56,877 nucleotides of DNA, from the NCBI GenBank assembly GCA_018714345.1, contig DVNO01000012.1, forward strand, positions 1 to 56,877. Direction: 5' to 3'. The position numbers and the translations under genes are program-made. This document shows, piece by piece, positions 1,604 through 46,792 of this stretch. Numbering within the stretch: the first letter of the stretch is position 1; each line of letters starts with the position of its first letter. The notes under the pieces were generated by a model. The model did not search any database. It was given only the letters and a program-made list of their open reading frames with translations, and had not been told where the DNA came from. The stretch is from Candidatus Enterousia avicola. GTDB lineage: Bacteria > Pseudomonadota > Alphaproteobacteria > Rs-D84.

Positions 1604-3541
1604 ATGCAAGAATTGTGGCAAAATCAATCGAATAACTTATTTTTATGGGTGCCTTTCTTAATGGCATTCGGTGCCGCACTATATTTTAACCTGTCTTTTG
1701 AGCCAAATTTTTTAATATGCATTGCTATTGGAATAATTTCCGTCGTATCGACGCTTTTTAAAATACCAAAAATAATAAAAGCTTTGGCTCTGTTTTGTTT
1801 CGGTTTTTGCTATGCAGCAATTTTTACACATATTATAGCCACACCACAAATACCGCACGAATTACATAATTTAAATATTGTTGGCACAGTCGAAAATATA
1901 GACTTCACAACTGATAAAACAAGAATTTACATAGAAACATCGTCAGAACAACTTGGTGCAGGAAGTGGGAAAGCAATTATCAGAGTATCTGCAAATTCTA
2001 ATATAATGCCGCCAAACATAGGCGATAAAATTAATGCCAATGTAGGGTTATTTCGCCCAAGTCCCGCGGATGCACCAGAAGCTTTCGATTATGCTCGTTG
2101 GGCATACTTCAATAATCTGACCGCAACAGGATATTTGACCGATTATGAAGTTATATCAGAAACTCATCACAGTAACATTTCAAACTTACGAAATTATTTA
2201 CATAAAAAAGCGAACTCTTTTCTTGTGGACACATTGATCCTTGGTTATAAAAATGCTGTACCAAAATCAGACGGTGAAATATGGACTGCGACAGGTGTCG
2301 GTCACGTTTGGTCTATTAGTGGCTTTCATATCACTTTGGTATCGGGTTGGCTATTCGCAATTTTTTATTTAATATTCAGGTCAATTCCACCCGTAACAAA
2401 ACGAATTCCAGCAAGAATTCCTGCATTAATTTGCGCATGGTTTGGATTGATGTTCTATCTATTTTTATCTGGGTGCGATGTTGCAACTATCCGAGCTTTC
2501 ATTATGGCAACATTGGTCTTTATGGCTTTTATATTCGGCAGAAACGTTATATCTATAAGAAATATTTGTGTTGCATTCTGCCTTATATTTATGCTCAACC
2601 CCCATTTTGTCATGCAACCAGGTTTTCAATTATCGTTTGCAGCGATATTCGGTCTGATTTGGTTATGGAATGAAGTCAAACCACGAATGCCACATAATAA
2701 AATCTTAAAGGTTATTTATACTGCTTCTTTAACATCAATTGTTGCAACAATCTTTACTGCCCCTTTCGTAATTGCACATTTTTACAGCCTGCCTATTTAT
2801 GGTCTAATCGGAAATTTAATACTGTTGCCAATCTTTTCTGTCGCAATTATGCCATTGGTGATGCTTGGAGTTTTTACGTCCGTATTCGGTTGGAATGCAC
2901 CAATAATTTTAGCAGATAAAATCTACGATTTTCTTTTAATAATCGGTAATAAGATATTTGAACTGCCATTTGCATCTATAACAATGCCTCATATTCCGAA
3001 TGCCGCCTTAACAATGATTATAATTGGCTTAATGTGTTTAATGTTTGTTCGCCCATTACGTGTAAAAATAAATTACATATTGTGTGCAGTTTTCATCTGT
3101 TCTGGCGTTCTTATTACTCTTGTTTATCCCAAACCTGTCTTCTATGCAACCAGTGATCATGAACTTGTCGCCTTTGTCGGAAACAATGGCACGTTAGAAT
3201 TCAGCAAATATCGTGCGTCTAATCACTATTTTACTTTTGATACGTGGAAGCAAATAAACAATGAAAAGGTAAATACCAAAAACATTCGCCGCAAACCAGC
3301 AGATGGAGTATGGATTTATAAAACGCCGCATTTCAATCTGGCATATATTCAAAAATTCGTACCACTGCAAAAGAATATCGTTGATTTATGCCGTGATGAA
3401 AGTATTGATTATATAGTTTCGTACTTTAATGTAAATTCACCAAGTTGTAATGATAAAATATTACATGGCAGTTTTGTAATTTATCCGTCTGGTAAAGTTA
3501 TTTATGTTCACCACAATCGTCCGTGGCATAATCCGCACTGA
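1604..3541 (+). CDS. comEC: ComEC/Rec2 DNA uptake channel protein
   Basis: Multi-TM protein with an OB-like region (FDYARWAYF), GVGHVWSISGFH (ComEC H-x-x-x-ISGxH), IRAFIM, NP..PGFQLSF and NLILLP. Confidence 0.92.
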   Translation: MQELWQNQSNNLFLWVPFLMAFGAALYFNLSFEPNFLICIAIGIISVVSTLFKIPKIIKALALFCFGFCYAAIFTHIIATPQIPHELHNLNIVGTVENIDFTTDKTRIYIETSSEQLGAGSGKAIIRVSANSNIMPPNIGDKINANVGLFRPSPADAPEAFDYARWAYFNNLTATGYLTDYEVISETHHSNISNLRNYLHKKANSFLVDTLILGYKNAVPKSDGEIWTATGVGHVWSISGFHITLVSGWLFAIFYLIFRSIPPVTKRIPARIPALICAWFGLMFYLFLSGCDVATIRAFIMATLVFMAFIFGRNVISIRNICVAFCLIFMLNPHFVMQPGFQLSFAAIFGLIWLWNEVKPRMPHNKILKVIYTASLTSIVATIFTAPFVIAHFYSLPIYGLIGNLILLPIFSVAIMPLVMLGVFTSVFGWNAPIILADKIYDFLLIIGNKIFELPFASITMPHIPNAALTMIIIGLMCLMFVRPLRVKINYILCAVFICSGVLITLVYPKPVFYATSDHELVAFVGNNGTLEFSKYRASNHYFTFDTWKQINNEKVNTKNIRRKPADGVWIYKTPHFNLAYIQKFVPLQKNIVDLCRDESIDYIVSYFNVNSPSCNDKILHGSFVIYPSGKVIYVHHNRPWHNPH

Positions 3542-24418: not shown

Positions 24419-25177
24419 TTAAATTGCGCGAACAATTCTACAAAACGTAACCCCATAAACTTCCTTGGCGCCAGCTTTCATTAAAACGTGACGCAATTCA
24501 GAAAATGTCGCACCAGTAGTCATAACATCATCTACTAGCAAAATTTTTCTGCCGCGTATGTTTTCGGGATTTATCACATTAAAAACACCTTTTACATTCT
24601 CCATACGTTGCTTGGCATTTTTATGGCCCATATCTGCCCTATACTTACGTTTTAAACTAGACAAATCCATTCTTACCCCAAAGGCTTTCGCAATAGGCCG
24701 CGCTAACAATGTCGCCTGATTATAACCACGATGAAACAAACGTTTGTACGCCAATGGTACAGGAATGACTACATCAGGTTTTATATCTACATCTCGTAAA
24801 GTCCATATCATGGCCCGTGACATAAAGTAAGAATATCTTATTTTCCCAGCATGCTTAAATGGCAACATAACTGACCGAGACACGTCATCGTAAACACATG
24901 CAGAACGAATTAAATCCAACTCGCAACAACCTGCCGCACAATTTGGGCACAGTGGCTGATTTCCTAAATCAATGTTTGCAGGAAACGGATATCCACATTT
25001 TTCACATTTTGGATTTCCTATCCAATTGAATCCAACCCAACAATCCGCACATAATTCGCCATTCGTCGATACCGCTGCACCACATATCGGACAAGACGCA
25101 GGAAATAAAAAGTCAATCAAGGAATTTGCGCATCTATTAATGATATTATGCGCATTCGCAGAAAACTTCTTTACCAA
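24419..25177 (-). CDS. comF: ComF family protein (double Zn ribbon plus PRT domain)
   Basis: LFPASCPIC..LCADC..CEKC..CPNC, PVPL...RGYNQ and LLVDDVMTTGAT motifs. Confidence 0.92.
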   Translation of the reverse strand: MVKKFSANAHNIINRCANSLIDFLFPASCPICGAAVSTNGELCADCWVGFNWIGNPKCEKCGYPFPANIDLGNQPLCPNCAAGCCELDLIRSACVYDDVSRSVMLPFKHAGKIRYSYFMSRAMIWTLRDVDIKPDVVIPVPLAYKRLFHRGYNQATLLARPIAKAFGVRMDLSSLKRKYRADMGHKNAKQRMENVKGVFNVINPENIRGRKILLVDDVMTTGATFSELRHVLMKAGAKEVYGVTFCRIVRAI

Positions 25178-33873: not shown

Positions 33874-34086
33874 TTAAAACTTAAACCCTGCAAATTTCTT
33901 CTTAAAGCCCGCAGCACGCTGACCTTTCTCACCAGCGTTACTACGCTGACCGGTCCATGCAGAATGGTTCAAGTTATCTGTAGACAAAACTAAATCTTTT
34001 TTTACAGAAGAATACATCTTAATCGTGTTACCATCTGTCATTGTAACATTGATTTCGTGATATTCTGGATGAATTCCTTTTTTCAT
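33874..34086 (-). CDS. rpmE: 50S ribosomal protein L31 (Cys-free)
   Basis: MKKGIHPEYH...H.AWTG...F.KKF. Confidence 0.95.
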   Translation of the reverse strand: MKKGIHPEYHEINVTMTDGNTIKMYSSVKKDLVLSTDNLNHSAWTGQRSNAGEKGQRAAGFKKKFAGFKF

Positions 34087-34164: not shown

Positions 34165-34683
34165 TTAATAGCGACCAATGCAACCTAAATAAGAATTTCC
34201 CGTAGATTCTAGTACATTTATAAACTGTGCCTGACTTTTCCCAGAAAACAGCGCAAGTATTGTCCCCGCGTCCGTCGCCAACATATCTGCAACGGTGGCA
34301 ATACCAGAATTCATTTTTTTAAAAAATCCACTGGCGGGGTATATCTCTGCCGCCAAAAGTTGGTTTTTACCGCTCTTTGATGCTTTTGCCGCCATTTTTT
34401 CTGATTCTATTACCATCAATTGACATTCAGGAGATATTATCAGCTTGTCCGTAACAACAGCATTACCCCCCAACAACTCGCCCCACCAACCAGTCGATTC
34501 ACAAAAAACAGGGTAATATACGGTTCCACTAGGATTTTTTTCCAAAATATCAACCAAATCTACGTCACCAGTCACTATTTCTGGCATTACACCAGTAGAA
34601 TTATTTATCACCTTACGCGCCAACTGATAATCAGGGTCGGCTTTCGTTTTACGTGGCCAATAAAGAATCGGAAACTGCTTCAT
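34165..34683 (-). CDS. hypothetical protein
   Basis: 172-aa ORF with TGaTATAAT 8 nt upstream. Confidence 0.72.
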   Translation of the reverse strand: MKQFPILYWPRKTKADPDYQLARKVINNSTGVMPEIVTGDVDLVDILEKNPSGTVYYPVFCESTGWWGELLGGNAVVTDKLIISPECQLMVIESEKMAAKASKSGKNQLLAAEIYPASGFFKKMNSGIATVADMLATDAGTILALFSGKSQAQFINVLESTGNSYLGCIGRY

Positions 34684-34751: not shown

Positions 34752-36041
34752 TTATTTTTTTAATGAGGCATACCATTTTTTTAGGTTTCCCCACATAATA
34801 TTTACATCTTTTTTAGCGGTATTATAGAAATCCTCAGGAATTTTTACATTTGCAAACAATGTTTTTACCAGCGCAGGTATCATTGTCATAAACATTGCAA
34901 TAAATATTCCCATCAAAAGAATCGTTATTATGCTGTCATTTCGCATCATCAGACCGTCCATTAAAATAGTTGAATCATTCTCTGACAAAGCTAATGCCAG
35001 CCTATCCGCACCGTCCCATTGACCAAATACTGCATTCAAGAACATAATCGAAAATGTTAAAAACACGCCAACCATTGCGATTCCTGCTGTTGCCTTTATG
35101 ACATCGTCTATCATTCCTTTTATTGTTTGACCACCATTTGGAAATATTGGCCAACCTTTAAACAACCATGACATTAACATGAACGGCAACATAACTAAAT
35201 CTAAGGACAGTTTTACCAATACCTCTAAGAAATATAACGGAACTGGTAACATCGCAGCAAAAAACAATACCAGAATTAATAAACCAACAAAGAAAATTGG
35301 CACGTTCGGGAATATAGGAACACCCCATAGTATGTGATGCATGTACTCTTCATTAAAAGCCATATTTAACATCGTCCAGCCTATGGTCATTCCAAGCCCA
35401 GTCATTTGATGTACGTTTGCAATTTCACATGTTAAATTATGACGCAGGCGCGGTGAAAACGCCCCCGATTCTGCCGAAGCAACGCTTGCAGCAGTTGGGT
35501 CTGCAACGGCTGTCGCAACAACACACGAAGCAAACTCATCGTTCCCCGCAACAGCACGATTCAAAGAAAGCCCGACATTAAAAATAGGTTCTATCGCTAT
35601 ACTTGTTATCAATCTAGGCAACGGTATCGCTATCAATGCAGCCACAAAAGCAAGCTTTATAAACTTTACACCAAAGTCACTAACTATTGACCATGGTTCT
35701 TCTATCTTCGCATTTAGAAATCCAGAAAATAATTTCCAAGCAAACCATACAGCCATTAAACCAGCAGAAAAAGGAACTATTACTGTCCCTATTGCGCTAT
35801 AAACACGTGGTAATAAACCAGACAGAGTTGAAATAATATCTGCGAACATCTGACATGACCAACAACTACTAAAGAAATTTAAAGCATCTGCCATATTAAC
35901 AGGTGCCGCTGTTCTATATATGGAAAAACCTGCAATAACCCCAAGTCCGGCTATTGTTCCAACAATAAGTGGCGCAGCCGCCCCTGCTGTGAAAGGCAAG
36001 AAAGATAAAAAAATAACCCAAAATTTTTTTAGTCGGTTCAT
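34752..36041 (-). CDS. polytopic membrane protein, VirB6/TrbL-like paralog 1
   Basis: Probable start MNRLKK at 36041; CWSC; many TMs; L.L.LVMLPF pattern shared with neighbours. Confidence 0.6.
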   Translation of the reverse strand: MNRLKKFWVIFLSFLPFTAGAAAPLIVGTIAGLGVIAGFSIYRTAAPVNMADALNFFSSCWSCQMFADIISTLSGLLPRVYSAIGTVIVPFSAGLMAVWFAWKLFSGFLNAKIEEPWSIVSDFGVKFIKLAFVAALIAIPLPRLITSIAIEPIFNVGLSLNRAVAGNDEFASCVVATAVADPTAASVASAESGAFSPRLRHNLTCEIANVHQMTGLGMTIGWTMLNMAFNEEYMHHILWGVPIFPNVPIFFVGLLILVLFFAAMLPVPLYFLEVLVKLSLDLVMLPFMLMSWLFKGWPIFPNGGQTIKGMIDDVIKATAGIAMVGVFLTFSIMFLNAVFGQWDGADRLALALSENDSTILMDGLMMRNDSIITILLMGIFIAMFMTMIPALVKTLFANVKIPEDFYNTAKKDVNIMWGNLKKWYASLKK

Positions 36042-36108
36042 TGCTTTTAAGTATACCATATTTTGCATTAAATGTGATATAATTGAAAAGATAAAAAATG
36101 CAGAGAGA

Positions 36109-37407
36109 ATGATTTTATTCAAAAAAATTCTTAACAGTTTGTGCTTACGCGGAATAACCGCAGCATTTTTTGCATTTTTTATTCTAACCCCGTTCAGTGC
36201 ATACGCAGCAGATTACGCTATTGTGGACGCGCTAAATCTTGCCCCTATCATTCCTACCATCCTTGATGCACTGATGGCAATTGCAACCGGCGGTTACGAA
36301 TTTTTTGTAGGAAATGGAACTGGGATAATCTACATACTGGTATGGGGCTTCCTTGCAGTATCGATGGCATTGTATTTGCTGAAAATGTACTTCCCAAAAA
36401 CATGGTTGTCTTTTTTTGGCTTCTCTGGCGGTGGCGAGATGATAGCCGGAGTAGACGGTATGAGTATTGCCACAAACATGTTAAAACCTGCTATCAGGGC
36501 TATAATAGCTGTAACGGTGTTGCTGCAACTAAAACCCGTTTATCTAACTGAATGGTTAATTAACCCTTTCTTACAATTCGGTTCTCTTTATACACACCAC
36601 ATAACAGAAACAATTAATGAAACTGGCACGAACGCAAAAAAAATAGAATGCCCTCAATCTGTGATAGACCAAGGATGGATAACAAAAGAAAGCTGTGAAT
36701 TTTTGGTTCAACCAGTTTCCGACCTATCCCATGCAAACAATCAAATCATAAAACGAGGCTTTGATTTTATTACCCGCGGTTTAAAGGGACTTATAACTTT
36801 AATACCACATGGTGGTGAAGACTTCCTTAACCTTGTTACAGGCATAATTTTAGTTATCACTTTTGTTTCAAGTAACCTTTTCATGGCTTTGTTAATAATA
36901 CAGGCAATATTTAATTTTGGTATGGCCCTAGTTCTGTACCCGTTTCAGGTTTTGGTTTATGTAGTTAAACCAAACGACAAATGGTTAGATATATGGCCGG
37001 CCTTTGGCGGAATAACAAAAGCCTTGCAGAAAATAGTTGTTACTATGATTGCATGCGCTTTTATGCTATGTGTAAATTTGGCTATAATAAAAGCTTTGTT
37101 CCAATGGAATTCGTCGGTATTTGTAGTCGCAGCAGGTGGAACTGCGTCCTCTAATATTCCATCCGCAGTAAATACAAGTCTTGGTTTCGGACAACATTCC
37201 ATATTATGGTTATCAGCAATTTTAACATTTTATTTGATGTTTAAGTTGTTTGATTTAACACGTGAAAAACTTGATACGTACGTTGGAAAAGATTCTGCCA
37301 ACCTATATAACCAAGTTAAGGGCGATTCAAAAATCTTAATCAATCGTGCCAAAGGCATTGGGTCTGCAATAGGTACAGCAGCAGGGTGGATAAAAAAGAA
37401 GAAATGA
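36109..37407 (+). CDS. polytopic membrane protein, VirB6/TrbL-like paralog 2
   Basis: Probable start MILFKK at 36109 behind TGaTATAAT; TM pattern and loop Cys pair match the neighbours. Confidence 0.6.
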   Translation: MILFKKILNSLCLRGITAAFFAFFILTPFSAYAADYAIVDALNLAPIIPTILDALMAIATGGYEFFVGNGTGIIYILVWGFLAVSMALYLLKMYFPKTWLSFFGFSGGGEMIAGVDGMSIATNMLKPAIRAIIAVTVLLQLKPVYLTEWLINPFLQFGSLYTHHITETINETGTNAKKIECPQSVIDQGWITKESCEFLVQPVSDLSHANNQIIKRGFDFITRGLKGLITLIPHGGEDFLNLVTGIILVITFVSSNLFMALLIIQAIFNFGMALVLYPFQVLVYVVKPNDKWLDIWPAFGGITKALQKIVVTMIACAFMLCVNLAIIKALFQWNSSVFVVAAGGTASSNIPSAVNTSLGFGQHSILWLSAILTFYLMFKLFDLTREKLDTYVGKDSANLYNQVKGDSKILINRAKGIGSAIGTAAGWIKKKK

Positions 37408-38618
37408 ACGAAATAGCAAACTCTTTTGTTGAAAGCACTGCGCAATGTTGGGGTTGCCCAATATTTGACCGTTTGTTTCAAATAATTTCTTATGCGGCTG
37501 CCGCCGTATATGATAAGTTTGCAATTTTTTGCGTCATAATATTCTGCGTCCTATTCGCTTTTTATATTATAAACGCGTTCTGGAAAAATATGAAAGACGG
37601 CGTTTCTGATCCGTTTTATCAAAAATCTATTAAACCTGTATTTATAAATTCTATTGTGGCGTTGGCTCTTTTAAGTATGGGGGTTATGTTCCCACGCTTT
37701 ATAACAAGTATTACGTTTGAACCCGTAGCAGATCTGACTCTTATCTACACGCAAAGCATGTTAAAAACAGACAATAGCGTTGTAAACGAGAAGGTAACAT
37801 ATCAACCAGAAACTATAAACGATGAAGGATTTTACCGCCCACAGCTGCGTGACAAAATTATAATGCTTATGAAAACAACTATCACACAGTTCCAAGCATA
37901 CATGAAACTTGGTATTGCTATCATGGACAAAGCGTTTTCTTTAAAAGCACTGCTTGGAATAGGTTCTTTAATAAAGCACATACTTCTATTCGTGATTGGC
38001 TTATATTTAACCTATGGGTTCTTTAAACTTTTCTTGTATTTCTGCTTTTATTTTGCTGACGTAATCATAGCGATGACCTTTTTCGCCTTTTTCTTCCCAT
38101 TGTCGTTAATACTAATTTCTTTCAAGGGTGGAAATGCGCCCAATTGGATTTTATCACTTGGGAAAAACGTTGGAACCAACCAATTTAAAAATTTAATAAA
38201 CTCTATCGTTACATTGGCGTCTGCTGTTATTACATATACTGTAATAATGGTTATACTTGCAAAATTTTTCTCTGCCCAGGGGCAAAGTGCAGCCGAAATC
38301 ATGGAGCTTATAACCACAGGGCAAATATTTGCTGACGATCTTTCAACAGACAACCTTGCAGCTATGACAATCGGTAGCTGTATAATTCTTGTTTATGTGT
38401 TAAACTTCATATACAGTCAAATTCCACAGGTTACATCTATGATTATGGATTCGTTCGGCGTTTCTACAAAGAATGATTTGAGCGAACAACTGGCAAAGGA
38501 CGCGATGAAGTTAACATCAAACGTAATAAATACAGCAGTTAGCATCGGGAAAAACATTTTAAGTGGTGGCGAAACAAAAGATAAAAAAGAAGGCGACAAA
38601 AAAGCGGAAAAGAAATAA
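37404..38618 (+). CDS. polytopic membrane protein, VirB6/TrbL-like paralog 3
   Basis: ATGA overlap with the previous gene; CWGC; TFEP; FFFPLSL. Confidence 0.6.
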   Translation: MNEIANSFVESTAQCWGCPIFDRLFQIISYAAAAVYDKFAIFCVIIFCVLFAFYIINAFWKNMKDGVSDPFYQKSIKPVFINSIVALALLSMGVMFPRFITSITFEPVADLTLIYTQSMLKTDNSVVNEKVTYQPETINDEGFYRPQLRDKIIMLMKTTITQFQAYMKLGIAIMDKAFSLKALLGIGSLIKHILLFVIGLYLTYGFFKLFLYFCFYFADVIIAMTFFAFFFPLSLILISFKGGNAPNWILSLGKNVGTNQFKNLINSIVTLASAVITYTVIMVILAKFFSAQGQSAAEIMELITTGQIFADDLSTDNLAAMTIGSCIILVYVLNFIYSQIPQVTSMIMDSFGVSTKNDLSEQLAKDAMKLTSNVINTAVSIGKNILSGGETKDKKEGDKKAEKK

Positions 38619-40051
38619 TGAAGAAAAAATTAATTGCCATTGCCATAAAATTTACCATGGGCTTAATTGCCCTAGGTATAGGTATATGGTATTTGTCATC
38701 TTCTATTGGTGGGGCCGCCATAACATACACCAGTATGGATAATTTTATGACGGCAATCGGTGTCAAAGACGGGGATATCGCATCTGCAAATGGTTGTTTT
38801 TTGTGCGGCTACATACAAGAGCTGTTTGCAGTAATAGGCCGTGCCGCTGAAATGTTCTGGACTGCGATGGTGGACAACATCTGGATACTGATGGCATTAG
38901 GTTTCGGGTTGTTCTTGGTTATATATACGGGCAAATACATTTATGACGCAGCAAAAAAAACAGCCACTCTTGACGAGTCAGAAAAGAAAATCGAACTAAA
39001 AGGCTGGTTTGATAAAGTATGGCGACAAGGCGCCAGAGTTTTAATTGTTGGGGCTATGATGGGCGCTCTTGGCATGGGTGGCACCGCTGCTTTACGAACC
39101 GTAGCAAACATAACGATAACTCCTGTGATGTTCGTTGGCGCCGAGTTATCCATGGCGGCAACAGGTGTATCGGATGCCGCACAATGCAATGCACTTAATC
39201 CAAATGCAGAAACAGACGATGTTCTGAACCCTGTACTTGGACCCTTTATGTGCGTCATTGGAAACATAAATAGCGTTATGCTGGCTGGCGCAGCTGGTGG
39301 TTTTTCCCTGATGAATTATTCATGGCTGGACATGGGTGGTGGTGTCTTTACTTGGTTAGCGGGGCTTGCATTAGTATTAATGTTCCTAATAATCGGGTTC
39401 GATTTAGTTTTTCAAATTCTTTCCGTGGTCTTTAAGCTTGTTTTCTTAATAATATTTTTACCGCTAATTTTAGCAGCCGCAGCATTTGAACAGACTTGGT
39501 CTTTGGCAAATGGTGTGGTAAAGAATGCAGTAGATATGCTGATAAAAACCGCTATTCAGGTTGTAAGCATTACTTTAAAAGTCCTTATCACGTACGCTAT
39601 CGTTGCATACGCTGCTGATTCGTATTTCCCGGGACCACGCGATGGGTACAGTGCCATACTGCCACCAATGATGGGACAAACAGTAGAAAATCCAGATGCC
39701 CAAACACTATCCGTAATTAACGTATTTTCTACCTGTGAAAGTGTGGCCACAGCGGACGGAGAAATGGATGCAGACAAATTTAAAAACTGTTTTACTGCGC
39801 AACGCACACAAGTAGAAAATCAATATCCAAACGCCTTTGACTTTATGGATGACGGTTGGGATTTCTTATTAATGATGTTATTCATATTCTTCTTGTACTT
39901 TTATGCAATTAAACCAAAAGTAGACGCTATAATAGTAGGAAGCAGTAAAGAACAATTTGATTTTGGAACTTGGGCCAAAGATTTGGGTAAGAAAATTTGG
40001 TACAGTCCAAGACAAATATTTGAAAACATTTCAAAGGCTATGGATAAATAA
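38618..40051 (+). CDS. polytopic membrane protein, VirB6/TrbL-like paralog 4
   Basis: TAATG coupling; CFLC; TITP; IIFLPLIL.A.AF..T. Confidence 0.62.
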   Translation: MKKKLIAIAIKFTMGLIALGIGIWYLSSSIGGAAITYTSMDNFMTAIGVKDGDIASANGCFLCGYIQELFAVIGRAAEMFWTAMVDNIWILMALGFGLFLVIYTGKYIYDAAKKTATLDESEKKIELKGWFDKVWRQGARVLIVGAMMGALGMGGTAALRTVANITITPVMFVGAELSMAATGVSDAAQCNALNPNAETDDVLNPVLGPFMCVIGNINSVMLAGAAGGFSLMNYSWLDMGGGVFTWLAGLALVLMFLIIGFDLVFQILSVVFKLVFLIIFLPLILAAAAFEQTWSLANGVVKNAVDMLIKTAIQVVSITLKVLITYAIVAYAADSYFPGPRDGYSAILPPMMGQTVENPDAQTLSVINVFSTCESVATADGEMDADKFKNCFTAQRTQVENQYPNAFDFMDDGWDFLLMMLFIFFLYFYAIKPKVDAIIVGSSKEQFDFGTWAKDLGKKIWYSPRQIFENISKAMDK

Positions 40052-41352
40052 TGCGGCACTTAATTAAAAGCTTTTTTACAAAATTAATACCAGCGCTGAT
40101 GGTTTTAGTAATTAGTATGTCTGGTGCTGTAAGTGCACAAAGTAACTTACCATTTACCGAAATTGGTGATAACGGTGCATGGATGACAGAATCTAATATG
40201 GAGCAATTTAATCAGAATATTAGTTCTGACATGATTGAATTTCAGTCTGCATTCCAAGCTAACCAGCTAGTATCAGATTACGTACCGATTGAGGCAAAAA
40301 TTGGTTTTGCCATGATGGGGGCATTATCAATGATTGCAGACATACTAGACTCGTCTTTAGTGCGATTTGCAATCATATTCATGATTCTTGCATATATTTT
40401 CTGGACGATGTTCGAAGCATACAACATGATGACAAAAGGTTCCAGCGCAATGGAACTTGGCGTCAATTTAGTAAAAAAAGCCGCTTTGATAATGATTTGG
40501 TCAATAATTTTGGTTCAAGGACCAGCGCAAGTCTTTATGTGGGTAATGGGACCAATAATAACCATTGCGACATATTTATCGGACCTAATATTAAATGCTG
40601 TGGCAAACTCCGCTGGGGCAGAAATACCAGATACTTGTGCCGCAATCAGAGACTATGCCGCAACACACATGTCTGAGAACATGGTAATTGATGCAAAAGC
40701 TGCCGCAGATATGCTTTGCGTACCAACCAGATTATCAGGATTCTTCTCTACGGCAATTGCTGCTGGATGGAAGTGGATGATTGCAGGTATTGGAACTAGC
40801 GCTTTTACAACTCTTGTTGGTGCAGTTTTTATAGTCGTGTTCATTTATAACGCATTCAAGTTCGCGCTTATGGGGTTGGGGGTCATAATGGATTTGTTCT
40901 TGTCCGTTATCATGTTACCTTTCACAGCTATCTCTGAAACAATTAATAAAACATCTTATAAAGGTATAGCTGGCGATATCTTTAATGGTTTTCTTGGGTT
41001 GTTTAAACCAGAATCTTTATCTAACCAAATAAAACGCTTTATCAATGCAGCTGTTTATTTCGTATCACTTTCCATCGTTGTTGCTGTTTGTGGCGCATTG
41101 TTATCGGGGACAGTAGACGCAAACCTTGCAGCAGAAGTCCCAACTTTGGACAATGTCGGTTTCATTTTGACTCTTTTGACAGGGCTTCTTGTTGCCTATC
41201 TTGCCGATAAAGCCGAGAAAATCGCAAAAGATATTGGTGGCGAAATAAACTATGACTTTGGCAAAAAATTCGGTGAAGATGTAAAAACACTATCAAAGAA
41301 GATATATGGTAAAGGTAAAGAAATATACAAACTTTTAAAAGAGGACGAATAA
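40051..41352 (+). CDS. polytopic membrane protein, VirB6/TrbL-like paralog 5
   Basis: TAATG coupling; signal-like N-terminus; loop Cys pair; VIMLPF. Confidence 0.6.
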   Translation: MRHLIKSFFTKLIPALMVLVISMSGAVSAQSNLPFTEIGDNGAWMTESNMEQFNQNISSDMIEFQSAFQANQLVSDYVPIEAKIGFAMMGALSMIADILDSSLVRFAIIFMILAYIFWTMFEAYNMMTKGSSAMELGVNLVKKAALIMIWSIILVQGPAQVFMWVMGPIITIATYLSDLILNAVANSAGAEIPDTCAAIRDYAATHMSENMVIDAKAAADMLCVPTRLSGFFSTAIAAGWKWMIAGIGTSAFTTLVGAVFIVVFIYNAFKFALMGLGVIMDLFLSVIMLPFTAISETINKTSYKGIAGDIFNGFLGLFKPESLSNQIKRFINAAVYFVSLSIVVAVCGALLSGTVDANLAAEVPTLDNVGFILTLLTGLLVAYLADKAEKIAKDIGGEINYDFGKKFGEDVKTLSKKIYGKGKEIYKLLKEDE

Positions 41353-41355
41353 CCA

Positions 41356-43446
41356 CTAGTCCACAAATGCAAGAAATTGCCGTGCCACTTTCTTTATGCC
41401 GCGCGTACGAAAAGCAACAGTTAAAATATCTTCGTTTTCTTCTATTACGACACCGCGCCCCATTTCATCGTGCTCTACAAGTCTGCCAACGCTGGATGTC
41501 TTTTGAATTGGTTTGTTTCGCATTCTTGGCTTTGATTCATAACTTGAAGAATACTGATATGAGCGTGGTTTTCCACCTTGAAAATCCAGAAATTTATTAT
41601 CCATTTCCGTAATAAATCGACTAGGTGAATTATATTGACGACTACCAAATACCATACGAGACATCGCATTTATTATTATCGCACGTTTACGAGCCCTGGT
41701 AATTGCAACATATGCCAAGCGGCGTTCTTCTTCCAAACCACCTGATTGTACAGCCATATCATTTGGGAAAATACCCTCTTCCCAGGCAGGTAAAAATACC
41801 GTATCAAACTCTAGCCCCTTTGCCGCATGAATAGTCATAATGCTGACCGCATCATTCGTAGGTGTCGCATCATCCGAATCATTATCATCTGTCATCATCA
41901 AAGCAGCATGTTCCAGAAACTCTTGCAACGAATCATATTTAGAAATTACATTCGTTATTAACTCCCTGATATTGTCCAGCCTGTCAGATGCATCCACGTC
42001 TTTTGAATCGCGCCACATCTGTATATAACCAACATTATCTAATAACTTCTGTGCTGCATCAGCAGGGCGAATGTCCGTCCAATCAAAATTGAAAGCTGCC
42101 AAAAATTCGTCTGCAATTGCTCTTTGCTTGCCAGACAATTGAACTTTGCGTAAACCATCCATTAAATTTTCACCAGCCATACGTATCTTTGCAATAGCGG
42201 ACGGTCCGAAACCACGACGCGGTTTGCCTATTACACGTAAAAAAGATATATCATCAAACGGGTAAACTAATAAGCGTATGTATGCAATAGCATCCCTTAT
42301 TTCTGCCCTATCATAGAACTTTGTTGCACCGACTAATCTGTACGGGATTCCCCGCGCAGTAAACTCTTCTTCAAAAAGACGCGATAAACTTCCTGCACGA
42401 ATTAACACCGCATAGTTTGAATAAAACTCACCATCACCCTTGCGCAAAATAGTATCTGCAACTAAATGTGCTTCATCAAAATCGCTGGGGACTGTTAAAA
42501 CATAAACAGGCTCACCGCTACCTGCATTAGGCTCTGCACGTAATTCTTTACCAAGCCTGCCGTTATTATGACGTATTAAAGAATTTGCCGCCCCAAGAAT
42601 GTTTGATGTGCTGCGATAATTTGTTTCAAGACGAATTATCTTTGCGTTTGGGAAACTTTTTTCAAAATTTAAAATATTCTTTATCTCTGCCCCACGCCAT
42701 GAATATATAGACTGGTCATCATCACCAACACAACAGATATTCGGATTTTCTTTACCACTAGTAAGCAACTCTAAAAATTGCATTTGGGCCGAATTTGTAT
42801 CTTGAAACTCGTCCACCATAATATATTTAAATTGATTCTGATAACGGTTTAATACTTCTGGCATAGAATTAAATAACTCTAAAACCTTTAATATAATATC
42901 CCCAAAGTCAACCGCACCAAGTCTTGTTAACTCTGCATTATATGCGTCTAATATTTTTTTCGCTGTCGCAGACGTATGTTCGGCAGAATGCAAGCCTTTG
43001 TCTTTTATCGAAGAAATACGTTCGACCCAATCAGACGGATTAAAATCTTTTATATCCAAGCCCATATCCGTCAGAACGTGCTTTAAAACTGTTTTTTGTT
43101 CGTCTTCCCCATATATCAGAAAATCTTTACGCAAGCCCAGCGCACTAGAATTTGCCCTTAAAATTCTAAGGCATATAGAATGAAACGTGCCGCACCACAC
43201 ATCAGCCGCGTACCAAGAATTTCCATCTGCAAATGAAGCCAATCTATTTTTCATTTCATTTGCTGCTTTATTAGTAAAGGTCAACGCCAAAACCTGCCAC
43301 GGAAATGCCAAGGCATTATTTAAAATATAAGCAATTCTCGTAGTAAGAACACGAGTTTTCCCAGTACCCGCCCCAGACAACACTAACAGCGGCCCTTCTG
43401 TAGTTTTAACGGCTAATTTTTGTTCATCATTAAGATTTTCTAGCAT
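41356..43446 (-). CDS. uvrD: UvrD/PcrA SF1 DNA helicase
   Basis: GAGTGKT, TFTNKAA, VDEFQD, GDDDQSIY.WRGA, NYRS, TIHAAKGLEF and EERRLAYVAITRA motifs. Confidence 0.96.
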   Translation of the reverse strand: MLENLNDEQKLAVKTTEGPLLVLSGAGTGKTRVLTTRIAYILNNALAFPWQVLALTFTNKAANEMKNRLASFADGNSWYAADVWCGTFHSICLRILRANSSALGLRKDFLIYGEDEQKTVLKHVLTDMGLDIKDFNPSDWVERISSIKDKGLHSAEHTSATAKKILDAYNAELTRLGAVDFGDIILKVLELFNSMPEVLNRYQNQFKYIMVDEFQDTNSAQMQFLELLTSGKENPNICCVGDDDQSIYSWRGAEIKNILNFEKSFPNAKIIRLETNYRSTSNILGAANSLIRHNNGRLGKELRAEPNAGSGEPVYVLTVPSDFDEAHLVADTILRKGDGEFYSNYAVLIRAGSLSRLFEEEFTARGIPYRLVGATKFYDRAEIRDAIAYIRLLVYPFDDISFLRVIGKPRRGFGPSAIAKIRMAGENLMDGLRKVQLSGKQRAIADEFLAAFNFDWTDIRPADAAQKLLDNVGYIQMWRDSKDVDASDRLDNIRELITNVISKYDSLQEFLEHAALMMTDDNDSDDATPTNDAVSIMTIHAAKGLEFDTVFLPAWEEGIFPNDMAVQSGGLEEERRLAYVAITRARKRAIIINAMSRMVFGSRQYNSPSRFITEMDNKFLDFQGGKPRSYQYSSSYESKPRMRNKPIQKTSSVGRLVEHDEMGRGVVIEENEDILTVAFRTRGIKKVARQFLAFVD

Positions 43447-43524
43447 TAAAGTCACCGAGCTATTATAATACACAAAACTTACTTATCAAAAACATATTTA
43501 TATTTTTATTTGGGATGGAGAAAA

Positions 43525-44221: not shown

Positions 44222-46792
44222 TTAGTTTCGGCAGGCATTCACACCATTAATATAAGTTCCGTTCGAACAAATACAAGTTTTACCCTTAGCATCATACGTC
44301 GCATCCTCTGGGCAAGGGTCACACGTAAAACCGGCTATAGAACCGGGTGTCCTGCTCAGAACCTTAACAAAACCATCGTCACAAACACATTCACCGGCAC
44401 TTGCGTCAAAATGTGCATGAGCCTGACAAGAAACAGCAACACATTTCCCTTCTGTTAATTTATAGCCTGAATCACACTCACACACACCAGAGCTATTAAC
44501 AGAAGCGTTGTCAGGACAACTTATCGCGACACATTGTGTTCCGGACACCTTATAACCCGACAGACACTTGCAACGTTCGTTAACATAACCATCTGTACCA
44601 GCAACCCCTGGGTCCTCCTGATATGTTGAATTATCCGGGCATAACAATGATTGATAGAACATTTCTGATATGCTATCTATGCAAACATCCTCAGTGGTGC
44701 AGCTTGTTGTATCTTTATCAAAGACCGCATACGCACAAGTCAATGCGACATTACGGCATGCGCCACGCATTACGTTATAAATACCATTTATGCTGGCGCT
44801 GCTTGACCACGCATTAACCTGCGTTACCTGCTGGTTATAACATGTTGCTATATCTAACATACAATTAGATGCATAATCAGATATTATCTGCTGTTGCTGC
44901 GCTTTTATATTTACCATCGCACGCTGTATATAATTCGTTACTACATCATTATAAGGTTGATAATTCCCATTATCATCATAGGTATATGCCTGACATTTAT
45001 CAAGAACCGCGCGACATAAACCTTCGTCAGTAACCTCTTGTTTTGTTCCTATCTTTTTCAACAAATAGCTAACTACACATGCACCGTTATTACCTGTAGC
45101 GTCGTCATCACCCTGCTTTATAGCAGCCGAACAACTGTCTTCGTTTATAGACATAGTATACGAATTCTTTAAGAAATCACTTGTTATGTTGGCATTATTA
45201 TAAGACGTCATAAAATCTGTGATTTTCGTTATGTTCTGACCAAGAACAACTTCCCCATTTTCATCAATGTACTTCTTGGTTGGATCCAAGCATTTTGTAT
45301 AATCTGCACCACAAACCATCTCGTCCGTCATGCAAGTATCTAAGGCAGCAATGCACCCCTTGGCATCATACTGGTTCTTATTCTGCAGTACTGCCAAACG
45401 TGCTTTTTGTAACATTAAGTTGGCACTACGAACATTGGAAACCAATGTCTCGTTCATTTTTGTCAGCCCCTGTTCATAAGAAATACAATCTTTATCAATC
45501 GCTAAATCGTAATTCGCTGTGATTTGCTCAACATTAGCACCGGCCGCTTCACATTGATTCAATATTGTCTTACAACGAGATTTTGCGGCATTATATAAAT
45601 CTCTACCACGCAAATTCGACATACTGGTAGTACCAGTATTTAGAAAATCTAAACTAAATATGTCGGCAGTATCAGACGAAAAATCTAAATCCATATCCAA
45701 ACCAAATGCCGATGAATTGTATGATGAAGTAGAAGATGCACTGGACGGATCGCGAATAAGCGCCTCTATCTCGTCTAACATATTACGCGTCTCTGACGTA
45801 TCTTTTGCACCAGACAAAGCCTCTTCCGCTTCGGTCTCTGTCATAATGGCACGAATTTCATCTGCTGACAGGCCAACATAACGAATTCGCTGTGCAACCT
45901 CATTCAATTGGTTGTTAGCATCAGTAACAGCTTCTTCAACCCGAGTATAATTATTTAAATTCGCCGAACATGAGCAGCGCTTTTGATTGGAATCAATTAC
46001 CGAACAGAACTGATCCATACAATCATTATACTGCTGCTGACAAGATGTGTTTAAGTCCGCAGTTAAATCCAGACGTTCTTTCGCCTCTGTAATACTTTCA
46101 GTTGTTGGGGTAGTTGTTGCTGAACGTGACTGTACACCACGAACTTCTTCGTCTATGTTAGAACCTGTCTGAACCGTTGTTCCCGCAATAGTCGCACGAC
46201 CACCAACCTCTGCCGTAGATGGCCTTAATGTTAAACCCGCACGCCTTACTGCTGGGTTATTGTTTATACTTGCTGCCTCTACCCTTGCATTACGCCCAAC
46301 CGTATTCACAGTTGCTTCTAAATTATCACGCGCACTATTCGATGACGTTTGCGCAGTACCAGCACGTGATACACCACCAGAAACAGTCGTTGTACTTCCA
46401 CGCGACGTTGCCGTCGATGTGGTTGAAGATTCCCCACCAAGATTTAAAACCCTTGACCCAACACGAACAACATTACTGTCCTGAGTTGCCGTCGCAGCCG
46501 ATGATGCCGTACGATTGACGACATTGCGTGCCTCTGAATCACGTGATGAAGTATCCGTTGTGCTACTTGTCGAAGAAGCTTGTGGAACACTTGTTTGTGC
46601 GGCAGTCGTAGTACGCGATGTCTGTGCACGAGATACTGTGCTAGACGTGCCACGAGAACTGGTCTGTGATGTAGAGCTTGTATTAGACGCCGCCGATGGT
46701 ATAACACGCGATATAGTCGTCGAAGTACCGTCTGCAAAAGCAAACGGCGCACTAAACGCAATTAAGAAAAAGCACAGTGGCAATCTTCTCAT
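44222..46792 (-). CDS. large exported Cys-rich protein with S/T/R-rich N-terminus and EGF-like C-terminal repeats
   Basis: Signal peptide; about 220 aa of low complexity; C...Y..CMD..C...RC.C; CP.....C.C..GY......C repeats. Confidence 0.85.
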   Translation of the reverse strand: MRRLPLCFFLIAFSAPFAFADGTSTTISRVIPSAASNTSSTSQTSSRGTSSTVSRAQTSRTTTAAQTSVPQASSTSSTTDTSSRDSEARNVVNRTASSAATATQDSNVVRVGSRVLNLGGESSTTSTATSRGSTTTVSGGVSRAGTAQTSSNSARDNLEATVNTVGRNARVEAASINNNPAVRRAGLTLRPSTAEVGGRATIAGTTVQTGSNIDEEVRGVQSRSATTTPTTESITEAKERLDLTADLNTSCQQQYNDCMDQFCSVIDSNQKRCSCSANLNNYTRVEEAVTDANNQLNEVAQRIRYVGLSADEIRAIMTETEAEEALSGAKDTSETRNMLDEIEALIRDPSSASSTSSYNSSAFGLDMDLDFSSDTADIFSLDFLNTGTTSMSNLRGRDLYNAAKSRCKTILNQCEAAGANVEQITANYDLAIDKDCISYEQGLTKMNETLVSNVRSANLMLQKARLAVLQNKNQYDAKGCIAALDTCMTDEMVCGADYTKCLDPTKKYIDENGEVVLGQNITKITDFMTSYNNANITSDFLKNSYTMSINEDSCSAAIKQGDDDATGNNGACVVSYLLKKIGTKQEVTDEGLCRAVLDKCQAYTYDDNGNYQPYNDVVTNYIQRAMVNIKAQQQQIISDYASNCMLDIATCYNQQVTQVNAWSSSASINGIYNVMRGACRNVALTCAYAVFDKDTTSCTTEDVCIDSISEMFYQSLLCPDNSTYQEDPGVAGTDGYVNERCKCLSGYKVSGTQCVAISCPDNASVNSSGVCECDSGYKLTEGKCVAVSCQAHAHFDASAGECVCDDGFVKVLSRTPGSIAGFTCDPCPEDATYDAKGKTCICSNGTYINGVNACRN

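Follow-up and report, generated by a model that had tools for sequence, protein, structure and literature searches.

Several copies of VirB6 are a long-noted and unexplained feature of Rickettsiales-type type IV secretion systems (T4SSs), in which they occur together with scattered vir genes as a published pattern (PMC2653234, PMC7648143, PMC11077975). Rickettsia has five RvhB6 paralogues of 674-1154 aa that are described as alike only in their TrbL core (PMC2653234), the vir genes of Anaplasma fall into three distal clusters, one of them with virB3, virB4-1 and four cotranscribed virB6 genes, and some of the Anaplasma VirB6 paralogues are reported to be surface-exposed (PMC7648143), and Wolbachia has four tandem virB6 genes, the duplications being termed "a mystery" (bioRxiv 2025.08.29.673095). 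The hallmarks of the rvh system given in the Methods of PMC11077975 are duplicated RvhB4, RvhB8 and RvhB9, a multicopy RvhB6 and the lack of VirB5. In R388, VirB6 is described as the pentameric base of the stalk (PMC12981334), and whether VirB6 paralogues form heterogeneous or homogeneous complexes was raised as open in a review of 2021 (PMC8035066). Here we analyze a locus of five VirB6-like genes (A to E) at positions 34752-41352 of a stretch of 56,877 nucleotides from Candidatus Enterousia avicola (contig DVNO01000012.1 of GenBank assembly GCA_018714345.1; this whole stretch is called the window below). Enterousia has been placed in the uncultured GTDB order Rs-D84, with genomes of <1 Mb that are described as being without a tricarboxylic acid cycle and respiratory chains (PMC12306168).

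The five genes very probably encode diverged VirB6 paralogues of a single chromosomal T4SS, the components of which are scattered in the Rickettsiales manner over the reduced genome (0.86 Mb) of this Enterousia-group gut alphaproteobacterium. What is new here is thus the lineage, whereas the machine is of a familiar type and not a new apparatus. As with RvhB6a-e of Rickettsia, five very divergent paralogues with a VirB6/TrbL domain are found in an array (PMC2653234, PMC8035066) and conservation is limited to the membrane-spanning core; the chromosomal T4SS with scattered genes in a reduced alphaproteobacterial genome is also shared with the described rvh system. Unlike the RvhB6 proteins (674-1154 aa), however, A-E are compact (404-477 aa) and have no long flanking extensions, and unlike the RvhB6 array they do not lie next to virB3-virB4 and their first gene is inverted. 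The tandem, cotranscribed and divergent VirB6 copies of the Anaplasmataceae, Wolbachia included, with a T4SS in distal clusters (PMC7648143; bioRxiv 2025.08.29.673095), are likewise comparable, but in the Anaplasmataceae the four copies are reported to follow directly after virB3-virB4, and some of them are very large with repeat extensions. Moreover, the Enterousia lineage has been placed in GTDB order Rs-D84 (PMC12306168) and not in the Rickettsiales. In the literature that we searched (which did not extend to Begmatov et al. 2023 or to the PMC11077975 supplements) we found no description of a T4SS for Enterousia or Rs-D84 and no paper linking five VirB6 paralogues to a pentameric stalk; the Enterousia genome paper (PMC12306168) contains 0 occurrences of "secretion", "T4SS" or "VirB".

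Gene A (34752-36041; 429 aa) lies on the minus strand, whereas B (36109-37407; 432 aa), C (37404-38618; 404 aa), D (38618-40051; 477 aa) and E (40051-41352; 433 aa) follow one another on the plus strand. Start codons were chosen to agree with ortholog alignments (the ATG of A at 36041, for example, fits the ortholog consensus start MNxLKKFW). The start of C overlaps the stop of B (junction ATGA), and both C/D and D/E are joined by TAATG. This layout of one divergent and four translationally coupled genes for polytopic proteins was read correctly in the original prediction, which had put their length at about 400-480 aa, and several hydrophobic stretches were found in each protein by a simple Kyte-Doolittle scan. 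The gap of 67 bp that had been noted between A and B is present at 36042-36108. It had been said to hold back-to-back extended -10 boxes driving the genes, and -10-like boxes do occur on both strands (TGaTATAAT on the plus strand; TATACT, preceded by TG, on the minus strand), but we regard them as mere pattern matches because promoter-like patterns are not enriched over the region (19 compared with 25.2 +/- 5.3 in shuffled sequences).

The sequence features that had been said to unite the five proteins were also recovered. The proline motifs (AIEP149 in A, LINP150 in B, TFEP104 in C, TITP166 in D and VMGP165 in E) fall on one common aligned column across A-E in the profile comparisons, and so does the second set of motifs (LPF285, YPF277, FPL231, LPL281 and LPF289, respectively). 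The predicted lysine-rich tail is seen as 7-10 Lys+Arg among the C-terminal 40 residues of each protein.

Two observations on single paralogues may be added. Orthogroups A (C60, C63), C (C15, C18) and D (residues 60-63) have an invariant CxxC motif at the same aligned column, while B and E are without it and have other invariant cysteine pairs (C181 and C196 in B; C196 and C223 in E); this pattern of conserved cysteines suggests disulfides or metal sites in the soluble loops. In a contig from a related strain (run X1), there is a 15-base insertion at window position 38582, within the Lys-rich C-terminal tail of C, so the length of this tail varies between strains.

At the level of single sequences, with about 20% identity between paralogues, the five proteins are linked as a chain, with BLASTP E-values of 2e-12 (A-C), 6e-5 (A-D), 0.01 (D-E) and 0.05 (B-C). 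One alignment was built for each gene (the window protein plus 15-23 relatives), and the profiles were compared by hhalign. A was the best-connected paralogue and was linked to C with a probability of 99.9% (2e-37, over 362 columns), to D with 98.7% (2e-16), to E with 98.4% (4e-15) and to B, the most divergent of the five, with 97% (5e-11); D and E were linked as well (96.8%, 3e-10), and the comparison of B with C was weak (24%, 8e-4). The alignments span 275-362 columns, i.e., nearly the full length of the proteins. Hydrophobic composition may inflate such profile scores; the alignments are, however, collinear, and the conserved Pro, Gly and Cys columns coincide. Judged by these profiles, A-E are mutually homologous, diverged paralogues, related beyond chance, as had been proposed. 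A search of all open reading frames (ORFs) of at least 60 aa in the genome with the group A profile retrieved A-E at 2e-212 to 6e-7 and the next match at 0.015, so we count exactly five copies in this genome.

The assignment to VirB6 rests on family models and predicted structures. With the TrbL/VirB6 model PF04610, D gave 17.9 bits (E 0.0028), and a scan of the whole genome returned the same single weak match; the invariant residues W236 and W246 of D lie within the stretch matching PF04610, and a conserved essential Trp is described for the central region of VirB6 (PMC2653234). No match to PF04610 at E <= 1 was obtained for A, B, C and E, and none of A-E matched NCBIfam models. An exhaustive search with A retrieved 125 relatives, 30 distant ones of which were scanned: 10 of the 30 matched PF04610 at E <= 0.001 and three exceeded its cut-off (P0192 with 32.7, P0200 with 29.2 and P0196 with 26.3 bits).

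AlphaFold2 models of B and D were compared with known structures (VIA-align over 48,161 chains, and Foldseek). For both models the first rank in VIA-align was chain 7o3v_F, the TrwI/VirB6 protein of R388 (B: Z 13.6, root-mean-square deviation 6.1, 251 of 261 residues; D: Z 12.7, root-mean-square deviation 5.2, 255 of 261 residues), so that two independent models chose the same chain and covered 96-98% of it. The next row for D, at Z 7.8, was the DotA-IcmX protochannel, which was also among the top three rows; DotA is described as sharing structural features with VirB6 (PMC12981334). Foldseek placed TrwI chains first for B (best 8rt9_F, E 0.019, probability 1.00, TMt 0.50, range 0.50-0.55), and for D it gave TrwI chains a probability of 0.96-0.97 and every other row <=0.30; its E-values for TrwI are weak (0.019-0.33), and we relied on the VIA-align rows and the Foldseek probability instead. 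The B model has a mean predicted local distance difference test score (pLDDT) of 79.6 and a predicted template modelling score (pTM) of 0.70. Taken together, the fold matches of B and D, the sub-threshold PF04610 match of D, the distant relatives of A and the hhalign links identify A-E as paralogues of the VirB6/TrbL family, as far as sequence profiles and models can tell. The TrwI structures of R388 (7o3v, 8rt9, 8rtd) are thus the best structural match of B and D and, like them, represent a polytopic inner-membrane protein of a P-type T4SS. Unlike A-E, however, TrwI is single-copy and homo-pentameric and works in conjugation, in a system that includes a relaxase and VirB5; identity to it is 10-13%, and A-E exceed it by 130-200 residues and have an additional soluble loop besides the Lys-rich tail.

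An N-terminal M23 peptidase domain was present in seven of the 30 scanned relatives of A (P0173, P0184, P0188, P0192, P0195, P0196 and P0199). Four of these seven also had a TrbL match in the same protein, and one had a VgrG3-like C-terminal domain. By their domain matches, the proteins with both M23 and TrbL resemble fusions in which VirB6 is joined to a cell-wall hydrolase.

The rest of a T4SS was found elsewhere in the genome. The assembly (G000; 861,634 bases, 96.8% complete) is a draft of 36 contigs, among which the window is contig C32. Genes for VirB8, VirB9 and VirB10 lie in a row on contig C5 (33.6, 75.9 and 53.5 bits; VirB9 and VirB10 are also listed with 78.3 and 57.2 bits), the coupling protein VirD4 is encoded on contig C2 (125.1 bits) and a VirB11-like ATPase of 325 aa on contig C30 (78.7 bits). 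VirB9, VirB10 and VirD4 each gave a single match in the genome, and for VirB8 one match exceeded the cut-off, while another candidate was weak and stayed below it (G000:C26:63226-63927, 17 bits). VirB4 (PF03135) had one match in each of the ten relatives searched (a number of matches need not equal a number of copies, as a further, divergent copy might escape the search); in relative G001, a VirB3-like ORF of 98 aa precedes VirB4, and the pair is about 110 kb away from the VirB6 array. The duplicated VirB4, VirB8 and VirB9 described for rvh compare here with one VirB4 match per relative (ten relatives), one VirB9 match and one clear VirB8 match besides the weak one; with its multicopy VirB6 and scattered genes, the system is a candidate member of rvh proper. 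The search for other vir genes suggested with the original prediction was thus successful, and its view of a stand-alone locus, or of an entirely different machine, is not supported, because the same genome encodes VirB8-VirB10, a VirB11-like ATPase and VirD4, and all ten relatives searched have VirB4.

The weak VirB8 candidate is itself part of a small group of genes (G000:C26:63226-65360), in which its ORF of 233 aa comes before two ORFs without a family (214 and 262 aa) that overlap or adjoin; the three lie just after an ORF of 756 aa. By its weak family match, the 233-aa ORF may be a second, divergent VirB8-type gene.

A number of results weigh against the assignment of A-E to the VirB6 of one T4SS. 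None of A-E reached the Pfam cut-off of PF04610 (25.9 bits), profiles of groups D and A retrieved nothing from the PDB sequences beyond the level of chance (E >= 0.8), the D model is of moderate confidence (pLDDT 65, pTM 0.56), and VIA-align Z values of 12.7-13.6 can, according to the tool's own note, be reached by chance for all-helical models. The fold evidence comes from B and D, and A, C and E are assigned to VirB6 because the profile comparisons tie them in. In this assembly, no candidate for VirB4 was found with PF03135, only P-loop scraps of <=15.9 bits with TIGR00929, and no VirB3 with PF05101, and a tblastn search with VirB4 and VirB3 of G001 and their two neighbors gave no match. VirB2 (PF04956) had no match in the genome, and neither had VirB5 (PF07996), which would be in keeping with the described rvh system, although the same VirB5 search also passed its cut-off in none of 14 control genomes. 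Contigs of a metatranscriptome library (X2) cover 20 of 30 bins, in pieces and with 95-99% identity, but this library may hold DNA; two further "RNA-Seq" libraries are probably DNA, and neither transcription nor operon structure follows from contig cover. Finally, contact of A-E with each other or with other Vir proteins is a prediction by analogy. We put the absence of VirB3 and VirB4 down to a gap in the assembly, because it is a draft of 36 contigs and because the SufBD-like neighbor of the G001 VirB3-VirB4 pair likewise had no match in it; an unassembled VirB3-VirB4 region is likelier than a loss in this strain.

To place the locus among its relatives, we collected 80 related loci from gut metagenome assemblies, 76 of which span the array while four end inside it. 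The order A- B+ C+ D+ E+ was found in all 76 spanning loci, with intact frames and lowest identities to the window proteins of 55, 49, 46, 53 and 42% (A to E). The A profile was matched by 58 of 61 genomes in an order-level sample (the window's own genome included) and by 23 of 251 genomes in a class-level sample, the matching genomes being small (0.9-2.5 Mb). Fifteen arrays were then fetched from nine families and their ORFs scored with the five A-E profiles. Five tandem copies were present in 10 of the 15 arrays; G025 had four copies in the array and a fifth on another contig, G177 and G283 had four copies with both flanks present, and the arrays of G072 and G017 were cut by contig ends. In a second batch (20 stretches from 12 further genomes), G270, G091 and G127 had five copies each, distributed over two or three loci, three copies were seen in G176 and G088 and one in G243, and the other genomes were cut off. 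Conservation of exactly five orthogroups, for which a lineage-wide test had been suggested, is supported within the genus and family (76/76 loci), and largely within the order. No match to VirB4 or VirB3 was found by BLASTP (1e-5) in the 35 fetched arrays and part-arrays.

In the arrays of other families all copies lie on one strand, and most of the proteins are longer (about 400-980 aa). Their fourth gene was repeatedly the best match to the D profile, and the first array gene of G016 matched A at 1e-82. From these one-strand arrays, with a D-like fourth and an A-like first gene, it follows by sequence comparison that the gene order A-B-C-D-E is old and that the Enterousia family has A inverted. 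We also computed a quick maximum-likelihood tree for 45 copies (nine genomes), in which many branches are long. In this tree the fourth-position proteins from five families of Rs-D84 group together (Shimodaira-Hasegawa-like approximate likelihood ratio test 98), and each of the five genes of family f5 pairs with the gene at the same position in f6. The three genomes from families f29 and f83 have all their 15 copies united in one clade (100) apart from the Rs-D84 copies, which would mean separate duplications there. Constraining all nine fourth-position proteins to group together cost 21.1 log-likelihood units (p-AU 0.052), so that by the approximately unbiased (AU) test a shared origin of the fourth-position copies across orders is not clearly rejected.

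By analogy with the R388 structure and the role of the family, A-E would be inner-membrane proteins placed over the VirB4 ATPase, where they make up the base of the central stalk; the VirB8 arches would surround them, the outer core of VirB9/VirB10 would lie above or around them, and VirD4 would feed substrates into the machine. Such a machine would move proteins rather than DNA; protein translocation is favored over conjugation because no relaxase of the three families searched (PF03432, PF08751, PF03389) was found in the genome. The five copies would be non-redundant and co-assemble into mixed stalk bases instead of serving as spares: co-assembly is more likely than redundancy, since all five have been retained in a 0.86-Mb genome and four of them are translationally coupled.

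The strictest form of such co-assembly is an obligate mixed ring, a 1:1:1:1:1 hetero-pentamer with one copy of each paralogue in place of the homo-pentameric VirB6 stalk base. A hetero-pentamer was the original idea, here set within a T4SS, and we consider the mixed ring possible but rather doubtful. VirB6 is pentameric in R388 (PMC12981334; 7o3v was the chain matched here), Rickettsia also has five copies (PMC2653234) and heterogeneous complexes have been raised as a possibility (PMC8035066). The counts are compatible with the number five in all 76 complete related loci of a lineage with a 0.86-Mb genome, in the 10 of 15 arrays with five in tandem, in G025 with its second contig and in G270, G091 and G127, where five copies are spread over two or three loci, and the translational coupling of B-E favors equal dosage. 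The complete four-copy arrays of G177 and G283, the four copies reported for Anaplasma and Wolbachia (PMC7648143; bioRxiv 2025.08.29.673095) and the three copies seen in G176 and G088 do not fit, and A is on its own transcript; the four-copy lineages count against a strict 1:1:1:1:1 ring as a universal rule. The wider proposal, that in reduced alphaproteobacteria the homo-pentameric base was replaced by an obligate five-subunit ring and the five-copy state became fixed, possibly more than once, is accordingly put forward as a tentative one. If it is true, the Enterousia set (404-477 aa, no extensions) would be the simplest natural system for solving such a ring.

The paralogues could instead serve different machines or conditions (substrates, growth stages or assembly steps), either as homo-oligomers of their own or in roles outside a ring. 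The high divergence (about 20% identity) would suit different jobs, A has its own putative promoter region, homogeneous complexes are listed as an option in PMC8035066 and surface-exposed VirB6 paralogues are described in Anaplasma (PMC7648143). The overlapping and coupled genes B-E, however, point to co-expression rather than alternation, and there is only one match each of VirB9, VirB10 and VirD4 to build machines with, so that we would not expect this explanation to be the correct one, though it deserves to be kept in mind. Far less probable than either is an envelope apparatus in which the five proteins work without Vir proteins, as was originally envisaged. It would agree with the lack of an adjoining vir gene in the window, with the failure to find VirB4 in this assembly and with the absence of VirB4/VirB3 matches from the 35 other arrays and part-arrays, but the rest of the T4SS is encoded in the same genome, VirB4 occurs in 10/10 relatives and published systems of this kind normally have their vir genes scattered, which leaves it hardly credible.

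With five diverged VirB6 paralogues of one scattered T4SS as the favored reading, multi-copy VirB6 is now also found in a widespread, uncultured gut lineage with genomes of about 0.9 Mb (Candidatus Enterousia, order Rs-D84). That an organism with so poor a metabolism has a complete T4SS suggests that it depends on another cell or attacks one, and the locus thus hints that members of a common gut lineage live at the expense of, or in contact with, a host or prey. The short, extension-free paralogues also lend themselves to testing whether five genes match the five-fold stalk.

A second envelope machine, a pilus or a DNA-uptake system, is likely in this genome, judging from its gene content, because a four-gene block (G000:C28:3010-7695) includes a strong PilB/GspE-type ATPase (545 aa, 219.5 bits) and the window contains ComEC-like (1604-3541) and ComF-like (24419-25177) genes.

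In the window, no T4SS gene was found next to the array among the ORFs scanned, in agreement with what had been read from the sequence, and the remaining scanned ORFs are housekeeping genes (gyrA, leuS, murG, ftsW, mraY, a class A penicillin-binding protein, uvrD, dnaQ, etc.). The flanks had been given as rpmE and uvrD. The latter (41356-43473) directly adjoins E, whereas rpmE (33874-34086; L31 match, 4e-17) is separated from A by a conserved ORF of 172 aa (34165-34683), which lies downstream of A on the same (minus) strand. This ORF, which has a TATAAT-like box of its own upstream, was found in 73 of the 80 related loci with 67-90% identity and is more conserved than the adjoining VirB6 genes. 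It was considered as a part of the T4SS and dropped, as it had no Pfam, NCBIfam or Atlas match and no homologs beside the arrays of other families; it appears to be confined to its own family.

On the other side of the array, the minus strand at 44222-46792 encodes a protein of 856 aa for which only weak EGF-like Pfam matches (E 0.02-0.26) were obtained. Its N-terminus is signal-like, a long stretch is rich in Ser/Thr, and the C-terminal half is rich in Cys. Such features would fit a surface protein or an adhesin, and a relative of it is encoded near the array in many of the related loci.

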